From an uncultured Acetatifactor sp. (GTDB lineage Bacteria > Bacillota > Clostridia > Lachnospirales > Lachnospiraceae), in the NCBI GenBank assembly GCA_910578815.1, contig CAJTSE010000007.1, forward strand, positions 103,739 to 167,738: 64,000 nt of DNA, read 5' to 3'. Positions 15,951-20,168 of this stretch are shown here, one piece after another. The notes under the pieces are model-generated. The model made no database searches, had not been told where the DNA came from, and worked only from the letters and a program-made list of their open reading frames with translations. The stretch's first letter is position 1. Each line of letters starts with the position of its first letter. The position numbers were made by a program, and so were the translations under genes.

Positions 15951-16166
15951 GCCTCTGGCGCTCTCCGCTGCTTCACTACCCTGGCTCGTTCAGCCCGCGC
16001 CATTCGCAAATCGCGCCTCTGGCGCTCTCCGCTGCTTCACTACCCTGGCTCGTTCAGCCCGCGCCATTCGCAAATCGCGCCTCTGGCGCTCTCCGCTGCT
16101 TCACTACCCTGGCTCGTTCAGCCCGCGCCATTCGCAAATCGCGCCTCTGGCGCTCTCCGCTGCTTC
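15951..16166. repeat. Perfect tandem array, 3.4 copies of a 64-bp unit (GCCTCTGGCGCTCTCCGCTGCTTCACTACCCTGGCTCGTTCAGCCCGCGCCATTCGCAAATCGC)
   Basis: Units at 15951-16014, 16015-16078 and 16079-16142 are identical. A fourth is truncated at 16166. Confidence 0.95.
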
Positions 16167-16199
16167 GCAGCTAACTTTGCTCATGAAATGGCGCTCCCT

Positions 16200-16260
16200 C
16201 AGCGGACATAAAAAATGGAAAATTCATGCGAGCATGATTTTCCATTTTTTATGTCCGCTG
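16200..16260. repeat. Long hairpin: 29-bp stem with one bulged T and a 2-nt loop
   Basis: CAGCGGACATAAAAAATGGAAAATTCATGC-ga-GCATGATTTTCCATTTTTTATGTCCGCTG, followed directly by GGCTGAACTG. Confidence 0.9.
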
Positions 16261-16297
16261 GCTGAACTGTGTACTGCAAAAAGTACACTCCCACGCC

Positions 16298-16326
16298 TTG
16301 ACTCTTCACATTCTTTTTCATATAAT
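16298..16326 (+). promoter_or_regulatory. Consensus-like promoter for pflB: TTGACT-N17-TATAAT
   Basis: TTGACT at 16298-16303 and TATAAT at 16321-16326, 46 nt upstream of ATG 16373, which has an AGGAGG RBS. Confidence 0.6.
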
Positions 16327-16372
16327 GGTACTTAGGAATCAGAACTTAAAATTTTATAGGAGGTATTTCAAA

Positions 16373-18412
16373 ATGAAACCGATTGAAACAGATTTCGTGC
16401 GTGGCAAATGGGACAAGGAAGTCAACGTTCGTGACTTCATCCAGAGAAACTATCATCCCTACGATGGCGACGATGCTTTCCTGGCCGGCCCTACACAAAA
16501 CACCAAGGACCTGTGGGCAATGGTGCTTGATCTGCAGAAGCAGGAGAGAGAAGCAGGCGGCGTCCTTGACATGGACACCAAGGTTGTTTCCACCATCACT
16601 TCCCATGGCCCCGGCTATCTGGACAAGAACAAAGAGACTATCGTAGGTTTCCAGACCGATAAGCCCTTCAAGAGATCCCTGCAGCCTTATGGCGGTATTC
16701 GTATGGCAGAAAAAGCCTGCTCCGACAATGGCTACGAGGTTGACCCTGAAATCTCCGAGTTCTTCTCCACTCATAGAAAGACTCACAATGCAGGCTGCTT
16801 TGACGCATACAATCAGGAAATGAGAGCATGCCGTTCTTCTCATATCATCACCGGCCTTCCCGATGCTTATGGCCGCGGACGTATTATCGGCGACTACAGA
16901 CGTGTGGCTCTGTACGGCATCGACAGACTGTTAGAAGACAAGCAGGAGCAGAAGGATTCCACCGGCCGTGTTATGACCGACGACGTGATCCGCCTTCGTG
17001 AGGAAATTTCCGAGCAGATGGTTGCTCTGAAGATGATGAAGGAAATGGCTGCCTCCTACGGCTGCGATATTTCCAATCCTGCAACCAACGTAAAGGAAGC
17101 AATTCAGGCTGTATACTTCGGATACCTGTGTGCAGTTAAGGAGCAGAACGGTGCCGCTATGTCCCTTGGACGTACCTCCACCTTCCTTGACATCTTCGCT
17201 GAGAGAGATTTAAAGAACGGCACCTTTACCGAAGAGCAGATTCAGGAGTTTGTTGATCACTTCATCATGAAGCTGCGTTTGATCAAATTTGCACGTACTC
17301 CCGAATACAACCAGATTTTTGCAGGCGATCCTGTATGGGTTACCGAGTCTCTGGCAGGTGTAGGTGTTGACGGGCGTCACATGGTTACCAGAATGAGCTT
17401 CCGTTATCTGCAGACCCTGTACAATCTGGGCGCTTCACCTGAGCCCAACCTGACCGTGCTTTGGTCCACCAGGCTTCCCGAAGGCTTTAAGAGATTCTGT
17501 GCGAAGACCTCTATCGAGACCTCTTCCATTCAGTATGAGAATGATGACCTGATGAGAGCAACCCACGGCGATGATTACGGTATCGCTTGCTGTGTATCTT
17601 CCATGGTAATCGGCAAGGAAATGCAGTTCTTCGGCGCACGTGCTAACCTGGCTAAGTGTCTGCTTTACGCTTTGAACGGCGGTGTGGATGAAGTTACCAA
17701 GAAGCAGGTAGGTCCCAAGTACCGCCCTGTGGAAGGCGATGTCCTTGATTATGACGATGTTATAAGCAAGTTTACCGATATGATGGAGTGGCAGGCAGAT
17801 GTTTATGTAAATACCCTGAACATCATCCACTACATGCACGACAAGTACTGCTATGAGAGAGCTGAGATGGCTCTGCATGACAGGGATGTGAAGAGATACT
17901 TTGCTACCGGTGTTGCAGGTCTGTCCATCGTTGCTGACTCTCTTTCCGCAATCAAGTATGCAAAGGTTGAGGTTGTCCGTGATGAGGACGGTGTCATTGT
18001 AGACTTCAAGACCACCGGAGACTTCCCCAAGTACGGCAACGACGACGACCGCGTTGACGAAATTGCACAGTGGCTGGTACACACCTTCATGACCGCTGTC
18101 AGAAGGCATCACACCTACAGAAACGGTATTCCTACCACCTCCATCCTGACCATTACCTCCAACGTTACTTATGGTAAGGCTACAGGTAATACGCCTGATG
18201 GACGTAGAAAAGGACAGCCTTTTGCTCCCGGTGCCAACCCTATGCACGGACGTGATACCCATGGTGCGGTAGCATCTCTGTCCTCCGTATCCAAGCTTCC
18301 TTTCAAGGATGCACAGGATGGTATTTCCAATACCTTCACCATCATCCCCGGAGCTCTGGGCAAGGAAGATCAGGTATTTGCCGGCGACATCGAACTTGAT
18401 TTAAACAAGTAA
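16373..18412 (+). CDS. pflB: Pyruvate formate-lyase catalytic core (679 aa), lacking the C-terminal glycyl-radical domain
   Basis: Full PFL barrel, including the Cys-Cys active-site loop GIACCVSSM and C-terminal [17 protein letters not shown]. Ends at TAA 18410, with a second in-frame TAA at 18425. Start taken at MKPIETDF. Confidence 0.9.
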
Positions 18413-18439
18413 ATTTTTATAGTATAAAAAGGAGACGCT

Positions 18440-18643
18440 ATGGACGACAAAAAGATGATCGACGATTTGATTCATATGCTGGATTCTGGCATGACCGATG
18501 GCGTGGGACACATTAACGTTGACTGCGATGAAGAGGAAGAACAATCAAAGAACGTTCAGACAATGGGCTGTACGGATTGCTCAAGAACACCGTTGGCCTG
18601 CAGCGTACCTACCCTTGAGCAGGGGCTGGATGATTATCATTAA
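18440..18643 (+). CDS. 67-aa protein: N-terminus resembles the start of the glycyl-radical domain; acidic, Cys-containing tail; no radical Gly loop
   Basis: GGAG RBS 5 nt before the [28 protein letters not shown] aligns with [25 protein letters not shown] of the next ORF (9 identities in 25). Confidence 0.55.
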
Positions 18644-18722
18644 ACTGTCTCCACGGCATCAAACTAAAGTTTCAGGGAGGCGGCTCCGCCGCTTCCCACA
18701 TAAAATAAAGGAGGAAATTACT

Positions 18723-18965
18723 ATGGCAACAAGTGCTGCACAGGTTGATAACCTTGTAAATTTATTGGACGGCTATGCTACTAAGGGCGGCCATCATTTG
18801 AATGTAAACGTTCTTAACAGAGATACTCTGCTGGACGCTCAGAAGCATCCAGAGAATTATCCTCAGTTGACCATCCGTGTGTCCGGTTATGCAGTAAACT
18901 TTATAAAACTGACACCCGAACAGCAGGCTGACGTTATTTCCCGTACGTTCCACGAAGCGATCTAA
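18723..18965 (+). CDS. Stand-alone glycyl-radical domain protein (80 aa, GrcA/YfiD-like; equals the C-terminus of PFL)
   Basis: [59 protein letters not shown] contains the RVSGY radical glycine loop. AAGGAGG RBS 8 nt upstream. Confidence 0.9.
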
Positions 18966-18984
18966 GGATTGCTTATACAATTAT

Positions 18985-19017
18985 CCCTGGGCAGCTTTCC
19001 TGCCCGGGGTCTTTTTT
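18985..19017 (+). terminator. Rho-independent terminator or attenuator between the radical-domain gene and pflA
   Basis: CCCTGGGCAG-ctttc-CTGCCCGGGG followed by TCTTTTTT. Confidence 0.75.
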
Positions 19018-19052
19018 ATCGCTTGTAATACTTTGAAACAGGAGGGAAATTT

Positions 19053-19817
19053 ATGCAGGGCAGAATTCATTCTCTGGAAAGCTTCGGAACCGTAGACGGC
19101 CCCGGCACACGTTTTGTAGTCTTTGTGCAGGGATGCCCCATGCGCTGCGCCTATTGCCATAACCCGGATACCTGGGATATGAACGGCGGCAGCCTCATGG
19201 AACCGTCTTACATCATTGAACAGTACGAAAGAAACAGCGCTTTTTATGCCAACGGCGGCGGCTTAACCGTTACCGGCGGTGAACCGCTGATGCAGGTGGA
19301 TTTTCTGATTGAGCTGTTCACTCTGGCGAAGGAACGCGGTATCCACACATGTATCGACTCTTCCGGAATAGCCTATAATCCGGACAATGCCGCCCTTTGC
19401 GAAAAGTTTGACAAACTCATGGGCTTTACGGATCTTGTGATGCTGGACATCAAACATATTGACCCTGAAAAACATCGTGAGCTGACTGCACAGCCCAATG
19501 TCAATATACTAAAATTTGCTGAATATCTGAACGAAAAGCATGTGGATATGTGGATACGCCATGTAGTTGTGCCAGGCATTACGGATGATGACAAATATCT
19601 CTTTGACCTGGGATACTTTATCGGTCAGTTCGAGAACCTGAAAGCCTTGGATGTACTTCCCTATCATACCATGGGCGAAAAGAAGTACGAAAGCCTGGGT
19701 ATGGAATACAAATTAAAAGGTGTTCCAGCCATGGATAAAACAAAATTGCTGGAAAAAAAGCAGGTTGTTTTGGACGGTATCAGAAAGCGCAGGGAAGATT
19801 TCAAAGCCCGCGGTTAG
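19053..19817 (+). CDS. pflA: Pyruvate formate-lyase activating enzyme (radical SAM)
   Basis: GTVDGPGTRFVVFVQGCPMRCAYCHNPDTW carries the CX3CX2C cluster and the typical PflA N-terminus. Confidence 0.95.
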   Translation: MQGRIHSLESFGTVDGPGTRFVVFVQGCPMRCAYCHNPDTWDMNGGSLMEPSYIIEQYERNSAFYANGGGLTVTGGEPLMQVDFLIELFTLAKERGIHTCIDSSGIAYNPDNAALCEKFDKLMGFTDLVMLDIKHIDPEKHRELTAQPNVNILKFAEYLNEKHVDMWIRHVVVPGITDDDKYLFDLGYFIGQFENLKALDVLPYHTMGEKKYESLGMEYKLKGVPAMDKTKLLEKKQVVLDGIRKRREDFKARG

Positions 19818-19929
19818 TTATACCAAAATATACTTTTTATCATTTTCATGTTGTAATTATACATGTTTTATATTACAATAGTTTTTGGAAATTGATTTAC
19901 TTGTATCAGACAATAAGGAGGATAAGATT

Positions 19930-20100
19930 ATGGCATATGAAATCGGTGATGCGTGCGTGGCTTGCGGTGCATGCGAGTCTCAGTGCCCTGTCGGTGCGAT
20001 CAGCATGGGGGACGGTAAGTTTGAGATTGATGCTGACAAGTGCATTGATTGTGGTTCCTGCGCGGGACAGTGCCCTGTTGGCGCGATTTCGGAAGCATAA
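19930..20100 (+). CDS. 2x[4Fe-4S] ferredoxin (56 aa)
   Basis: Two CxxCxxCxxxCP motifs (CVACGACESQCP, CIDCGSCAGQCP). AAGGAGGA RBS upstream of ATG 19930. Confidence 0.9.
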   Translation: MAYEIGDACVACGACESQCPVGAISMGDGKFEIDADKCIDCGSCAGQCPVGAISEA

Positions 20101-20134: not shown

Positions 20135-20168
20135 GGCATCTCTTTATGAGGTGCCCTTCTTTTTTTTC
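20135..20168 (+). terminator. Putative terminator after the ferredoxin gene (overlaps the 3' end of the convergent MerR gene)
   Basis: GGCATCTC-tttat-GAGGTGCC (one G-U pair) followed by CTTCTTTTTTTT. Confidence 0.5.

Follow-up and report, generated by a model that had tools for sequence, protein, structure and literature searches.

No glycyl radical enzyme is more widespread than pyruvate formate-lyase (PFL), and in gut anaerobes it is a main route by which pyruvate is used. In Escherichia coli the gene for the enzyme, PflB, is intact, and the small radical-domain protein YfiD (also GrcA) repairs PflB that has been cleaved by O2; like Y06I of phage T4, it complements a PFL deficient in its glycine finger, and PflA is the activating enzyme. 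Here we describe a related but different arrangement in a 64,000-nucleotide stretch of DNA (henceforth the window) from an uncultured Acetatifactor sp. of the Lachnospiraceae (assembly GCA_910578815.1, contig CAJTSE010000007.1, positions 103,739 to 167,738). In this locus the PFL gene encodes a 679-residue catalytic core that never has the finger, the glycyl-radical domain is encoded separately as an 80-residue protein (GrcA3) that would be an obligatory partner, and a third, conserved gene for a 67-residue protein (henceforth orf67), with no counterpart in the E. coli PflB and YfiD system, lies between the two.

The closest experimental precedent is an engineered one. Andorfer et al. (2021; PMC8683613) cut PFL before barrel strand beta10 and complemented the truncated protein, tPFL(1-695), in trans with YfiD; once activated, this pair reached wild-type activity, yet the artificial construct bound YfiD weakly in vitro and was poorly activated. 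YfiD showed no detectable activation without its cleaved PFL partner, and residues 696-733 of cleaved PFL, including the enzyme's own beta10, were required for YfiD binding although YfiD duplicates that strand (PMC8683613). In a review of the glycyl radical enzyme field from June 2026, spare parts figure solely as proteins that repair an intact PFL (PMC13450708).

The PFL gene stops at the boundary of the radical domain

The core gene occupies 16373-18412 (coordinates are those of the window, and features lie on the + strand unless stated otherwise). Its product scores 1082.3 bits against TIGR01255 (cut-off 994.2) over profile positions 5-665 of 744 and 724.7 bits against PF02901, and it aligns with residues 13-681 of E. 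coli PflB. The active-site pair Cys406-Cys407 within GIACCVSSM (17588-17593), equivalent to C418/C419 of the E. coli enzyme, is invariant among 93 aligned cores. The RVSGY radical domain is absent from this polypeptide and sits on the separate 80-residue protein instead. Indeed, the core reading frame closes with a TAA at 18410, followed by a second in-frame TAA at 18425, and grcA3 (18723-18965) starts at an ATG at 18723, 310 nt downstream and in a different frame, behind an AAGGAGG ribosome-binding site (RBS) at 18706-18712. An initial annotation, made from the sequence of the window alone, had reported this split, and its coordinates, stops, frames and RBS were all confirmed when the sequence was read again.

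The 80-residue protein is not a new object, as it already has a name: it matches NF038360, 'autonomous glycyl radical cofactor GrcA3', with 161.3 bits (cut-off 158). It covers positions 664-743 of TIGR01255, matches PF01228 with an E-value of 2e-23, and aligns with residues 683-758 of E. coli PflB and 67-126 of YfiD. Its elements run in the order helix, beta10 strand, helix, RVSG55YAV finger and C-terminal helix; Gly55 (codon at 18885-18887), equivalent to Gly734 in E. coli, is the predicted radical site. Across 81 sequences GrcA3 is nearly invariant, and RVSGYAV is fully so. Unlike YfiD, GrcA3 has no disordered N-terminus of 60 residues and does have the helix that precedes beta10 (PflB 683-693). 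The family name of NF038360 implies a repair part; the operon context here, by contrast, makes the protein the partner of a core that has no radical domain.

The alignments of the two products to TIGR01255 and to PflB are complementary, which bears out the earlier proposal that the chain is divided at the domain boundary, as opposed to an intact PflB accompanied by a spare GrcA. In E. coli numbering the break lies near residue 680, right before the helix that precedes beta10. Across this position the closest intact relative reads ...ALGKDEAAQENNLVAMLDGY..., which shows what the ancestral, uninterrupted sequence looked like and exactly where it was broken. The initial annotation had also equated 679 plus 80 residues with the length of an intact PFL. 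This holds approximately, since the tail of the core, from V668 on, adds 12 residues and the N-terminus of the small protein adds about five.

These 12 residues (18374-18409) directly follow ...GALGKEDQV and form an acidic, amphipathic tail specific to the core, standing where the radical domain would begin. Hydrophobic and acidic residues alternate in it in a strand-like manner. The same tail or a close variant, with the stop codon within one or two residues, ends 58 of the 58 core tails listed from loci of the same operon type (see below), and the motif F-x-G-[DE]-[LI]-[DE]-x-[DN]-[LI] is retained even where cores are only about 75% identical. A single-chain model of the core, built on a shallow alignment, reached a predicted local distance difference test score (pLDDT) of 58.7, at which the position of the tail is not interpretable; a fold search with this low-confidence model returned only known structures of PFL and other glycyl radical enzymes.

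The split is conserved and under purifying selection

We scanned one genome per species with the 80-residue protein, which identified at least 590 relatives; the locus counts given here refer to the best 80. These loci nearly all carry Lachnospiraceae labels (Acetatifactor, Eisenbergiella, Roseburia and Blautia), with a few bins labeled otherwise. The order core, orf67, grcA3 is present in 60 of the 80, each from a different species-level genome. A core match with this stop and tail was recovered in 59 of these 60 operon-type loci, the remaining one being cut at a contig end, and pflA lies just downstream of grcA3 in 49. Intergenic distances in operon-type loci vary from 12 to 175 nt and, between orf67 and grcA3, from 4 to 690 nt, and such variation argues against both a single inherited lesion and a recoding signal.

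Searches of larger collections agree with this pattern. In a collection of 5.8 billion proteins, nearly every one of the 120 best core homologues is 678-680 residues long; a single cluster contains 4368 members. When the same collection was queried with a sequence spanning the hypothetical fused junction, nothing above 79% identity was found, while split relatives reach 86-98%; the clade thus appears to be devoid of a fused form. The ratio of nonsynonymous to synonymous substitution rates (dN/dS) is 0.042 for the core (40 loci), 0.055 for grcA3 and 0.11 for orf67, values that indicate strong purifying selection on all three genes. The synteny extends to a distant genome (locus L082, GCA_900111235.1), which repeats the order of the window: core, orf67, grcA3, pflA and a ferredoxin gene. 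In both, merR, dnaB, rplI and gdpP come next on the opposite strand.

In the remaining 20 of the 80 loci grcA3 stands alone, with no core, orf67 or pflA gene nearby. Eight of these copies lie downstream of genes for GroEL and a Cys-rich regulator of the Crp/Fnr family (L028, 4119-5243, as well as L026, L031, L042, L044, L051, L071 and L077), and no core, orf67 or pflA gene occurs within 5 kb of them. The products of the stand-alone genes likewise pass the cut-off of NF038360 (161.5 bits), and one metagenome-assembled genome (MAG) carries grcA3 in the operon as well as on its own (L014 and L079). Such copies fit a consumable, replaceable part that is supplied also from elsewhere. The earlier view of the radical module as a replaceable subunit is therefore compatible with its being a separate gene product and with the extra copies in 20 of 80 loci; its two-piece picture of the enzyme, however, missed orf67. 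Some of the other stand-alone copies adjoin spoIIIA-like genes or the gene for polynucleotide phosphorylase.

Several assemblies in the survey required individual reading. A candidate second kind of split, in which PFL would be divided into 536 and 202 residues (P0122), was rejected: a run of Ns marking a scaffold gap shifts the frame of an intact PFL. The corresponding 202-residue 'C-terminal PFL fragment' occurs on many contigs, among them L090 (3895-4609). A 78-residue gene near the intact pfl of L090 was considered as an orf67 and turned out to be unrelated. P0244 and P0252 contain internal duplications that are apparently misassemblies.

The intervening region encodes a conserved 67-residue protein

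The initial annotation had treated the 310 nt between core and grcA3 as a mere spacer. This description has to be abandoned, for the region holds a conserved gene with its own RBS, orf67 (18440-18643), which is the unannotated and most novel element of the system. A clustered protein collection contains 1679 homologues; among the 120 matches listed, 119 are exactly 67 residues long and 81-94% identical, and the few that are named are called "hypothetical protein". An exhaustive profile search of 1.84 billion representatives yielded 200 family clusters at 50% identity, nearly all of 60-90 residues. We read the surroundings of four distant members (37-41% identical): each lies between a truncated core with an acidic tail and a GrcA3 of about 80 residues, followed by pflA, with only the C-terminal end of the core present where these contigs are short. 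In some distant loci the start of orf67 overlaps the stop of the core gene.

The N-terminal half of orf67 consists of a helix and a GxGHxNV strand, similar to the helix and GGHHLNVNV strand of the radical domain. HHalign comparisons between orf67 and the radical domain gave probabilities of 81-88% with shallow alignments, and 95.6% (E = 1.3e-8) with a diverse profile of the orf67 family, reliable over the first 30 or so residues. The C-terminal part reads Cys-x6-Cys-SVPTL-xx-GLDD, the spacing across the family being Cys-x5-7-Cys. Family-wide conservation in this part is limited to a pair of cysteines (C47 and C54) and the block C-x-[VI]-P-[TN]-L-x-x-G-[LI]-D. The most conserved part of the gene is 18554-18616. 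The family has neither RVSGY nor a conserved glycine. No Pfam family matches orf67, and in NCBIfam it hits nothing but GrcA3 itself, below that family's cut-off (13.8 bits against 158, E 0.047). The orf67 profile found nothing meaningful among PDB sequences. In an AlphaFold2 model of orf67 alone (pLDDT 59.8) only a helix at residues 3-19 is confident. From its sequence, we read orf67 as a paralogue of the radical domain that has degenerated, keeping the docking elements and exchanging the finger for a loop bracketed by cysteines. The more specific idea that the Cys loop corresponds position by position to the glycine finger was rejected: the global HHalign alignment is not significant, and the residue placed over the glycine differs between runs.

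Small accessory proteins are known from other glycyl radical enzymes. The beta and gamma subunits of benzylsuccinate synthase (BSS) and the gamma subunit of 4-hydroxyphenylacetate decarboxylase (HPAD) are short Cys-containing proteins that are encoded beside the catalytic subunit and modulate the radical domain; they bind a [4Fe-4S] cluster through four cysteines and have no relation to the radical domain. Orf67 differs from them in having two universal cysteines only and in its apparent derivation from the radical domain, and no sequence relation between orf67 and these small subunits was detected with Pfam or among PDB sequences. Benzylsuccinate synthase is mentioned in PMC12590467.

Deposited structures of related cores

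Two PDB entries named 'Formate acetyltransferase', 38la_A (687 residues) and 38lb_A (739 residues), match the whole core with 1101-1115 bits and are, as estimated from the alignments, about 75% identical to it. Both come from organisms other than that of the window. Chain 38la ends ...SLGKED, and 38lb continues into a tail of about 50 residues that is not a glycyl-radical domain; as neither chain contains a radical domain, both are probably split cores of the same kind. The two entries are missing from a structure library that ends on 8 April 2026, and so were apparently released later; cores of this type are evidently under study elsewhere. PDB sequences include no GrcA3-like or orf67-like chain, and our search of the literature found no published description of a natural PFL split, of GrcA3 or of orf67, nor any paper on 38la or 38lb.

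A PFL assembled from separately encoded subunits

From gene anatomy, conservation, selection, homology and synteny we infer physical assembly, an order of activation and a role for orf67. We assign a probability of about 0.7 to the reading that this locus encodes an obligately multi-subunit PFL, composed of the core and GrcA3 and served by orf67 as an accessory pseudo-radical-domain subunit. The 679-residue core would provide the barrel and the Cys-Cys active site but not the last barrel strand, beta10, or the glycine finger, and GrcA3 would supply both in trans. PflA would then generate the radical on Gly55, most probably with GrcA3 docked on the core: since YfiD is not activated without its PFL partner, activation here probably takes place on the docked complex, and of the two substrates considered in the initial annotation the free 80-residue protein is, by this analogy, the unlikely one (PMC8683613). 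With the O2-labile part confined to a separate 9-kDa protein, a damaged copy could be swapped and the 76-kDa core kept; repair of O2 damage and regulated assembly may both be benefits of this design.

Orf67 would bind the core at or beside the site of the radical domain. It could act as a placeholder, assembly factor or chaperone that occupies the vacant slot of a radical-free core until GrcA3 is loaded, or it could be the natural counterpart of the recognition element 696-733 of the E. coli enzyme; the acidic tail of the core may take part too. A beta10-like strand is present in both orf67 and GrcA3, which reproduces as two genes the duplication that occurs when YfiD meets cleaved PFL. Compared with tPFL, the natural system is cut about 15 residues earlier, at about 680, its core ends in a conserved acidic tail, and orf67 is added, and the tail or orf67 might solve the binding problem of the engineered pair. 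We advance only tentatively, at odds that we would put below even, the fuller proposal that orf67 is a third subunit, a pseudo-radical domain that either holds the core open and exchange-ready or supplies an element like 696-733, with GrcA3 as the consumable.

Three observations count against parts of this interpretation. The glycine finger cannot be aligned reliably with the C-terminal half of orf67. The nearest precedent, tPFL with YfiD, is the weakly binding pair described above. Finally, one split lineage (L081, 4001-6891) has no orf67: its core has a Cys-containing tail of 33 residues and ends ...GALGKEDMVMLDSISLDDLSFSLEPDCACCEPNLSVDEAE, and the genes for an 80-residue GrcA3 (171.7 bits against NF038360) and PflA follow. 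Not every split PFL, then, requires orf67. That the 33-residue tail of L081 (gene call P0252) is connected with orf67 is hinted at by a match of only 1.6 bits that places CCEPNL against ACSVPTL.

The function of orf67 is where an alternative has most room. The protein could be a redox- or metal-sensing regulator or inhibitor which, once its Cys pair is oxidized, acts as a decoy and rivals GrcA3 for the core or PflA; or it could be functionally unrelated and merely linked. Its two universal cysteines, 5-7 residues apart, and its acidic tail would suit such roles, a docking-like N-terminus would compete for the slot of GrcA3, and L081 copes without it. On the other hand, orf67 lies strictly between core and grcA3 wherever we read the locus and overlaps translationally with the core gene in some lineages, which suggests a 1:1 partner, not a conditional regulator; we consider these roles unlikely, and less so than the explanations that follow. 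One of these holds that the core is decaying or repurposed and that GrcA3 is a spare part for a separate, intact PflB elsewhere in the genome. The NCBI name GrcA3 is indeed a spare-part name, copies of grcA3 exist far from any pfl gene, and intact PFLs with 69-79% identity occur in some Lachnospiraceae. A decaying core is nevertheless hard to reconcile with a dN/dS of 0.042, invariant Cys-Cys and a stop and tail conserved in 59 loci, nor would it be expected as the first gene, after a strong candidate promoter, of an operon that includes grcA3 and pflA. No second pfl was found within the window, and in 59 loci the PFL next to grcA3 has no radical domain of its own, which does not fit a part that repairs an intact enzyme after cleavage by O2. 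We regard this explanation as improbable.

There is practically no chance that the two stops and the insert arose through errors of sequencing or assembly, or that they mark a recent pseudogene confined to one genome. Errors of this sort do occur, as the scaffold gap of P0122 and the duplications of P0244 and P0252 illustrate, but 60 independent genomes share the architecture, as do thousands of metagenome sequences (the core cluster of 4368 included), and the supposed spacer encodes a conserved protein under selection, so that we see this possibility as already refuted by the comparative data. The pieces might also be rejoined, by intron or intein splicing, frameshifting or ribosomal bypassing: the halves lie in different frames, and another glycyl radical enzyme gene, nrdD of phage T4, does carry a group I intron. 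Against this, the gap varies in length from 12 to 690 nt between species and contains a conserved reading frame with its own RBS, while grcA3 starts from an AAGGAGG and an ATG of its own and is also found alone; different frames, moreover, do not suit an in-frame intein. Rfam scans, with permissive E-values over 16000-19300 and with gathering scores over the whole window, gave no relevant or significant match in the gap, introns included. We give rejoining equally negligible weight.

Taken together, the comparative data partly support the earlier interpretation: the split is real and looks obligatory, and it involves three pieces. Its carriers, Acetatifactor and Eisenbergiella as well as Roseburia- and Blautia-labeled MAGs, come from mouse, ruminant, rabbit and human guts. 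Current annotations of the three products ("formate C-acetyltransferase", "GrcA" and "hypothetical") mean that pipelines miss that the genes belong together. A separate 9-kDa radical cofactor would offer a system in which to study the access of PflA to the glycine, the docking of spare parts and the cost of O2 damage, and, if true, an orf67 that is a pseudo-radical domain would explain the puzzle of the duplicated beta10 in YfiD-mediated repair.

Operon signals and neighboring genes

The signals around the split genes are those of one operon, with one candidate promoter 5' of the core gene and one terminator 3' of grcA3. The promoter, sigma-70-like (TTGACT-17-TATAAT, 16298-16326), matches 11 of 12 consensus positions, and the region contains no better site. 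The intrinsic terminator (18985-19019) has a 10-bp stem with eight GC pairs; its hairpin spans 18985-19009 and is followed by a T-run. Between orf67 and grcA3, at 18675-18697, lies a GC-rich hairpin, GGGAGGCGG-CTCCG-CCGCTTCCC, that has no T-run; it may be a local element of RNA stability or processing, the spacer between these genes being 4-690 nt long elsewhere.

Downstream of the terminator, pflA (19053-19817) encodes the PFL-activating radical S-adenosylmethionine enzyme (290.4 bits against TIGR02493, cut-off 231.75). Directly after it, as in the distant locus L082, comes a gene for a small 2x[4Fe-4S] ferredoxin (19930-20100; 89 bits against NF058577, cut-off 65), whose reading frame is listed from a TTG at 19885 and more likely starts at the ATG at 19930. 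The ferredoxin is plausible as a dedicated electron donor for PflA. A second terminator follows it at 20135-20155. Just upstream of the pfl promoter, on the - strand at 16117-16266, Rfam reports a Clostridiales-1 RNA match of 41.9 bits, under the gathering score of 48 (E 4e-7), and a long, near-perfect hairpin (16198-16262) lies inside this match.

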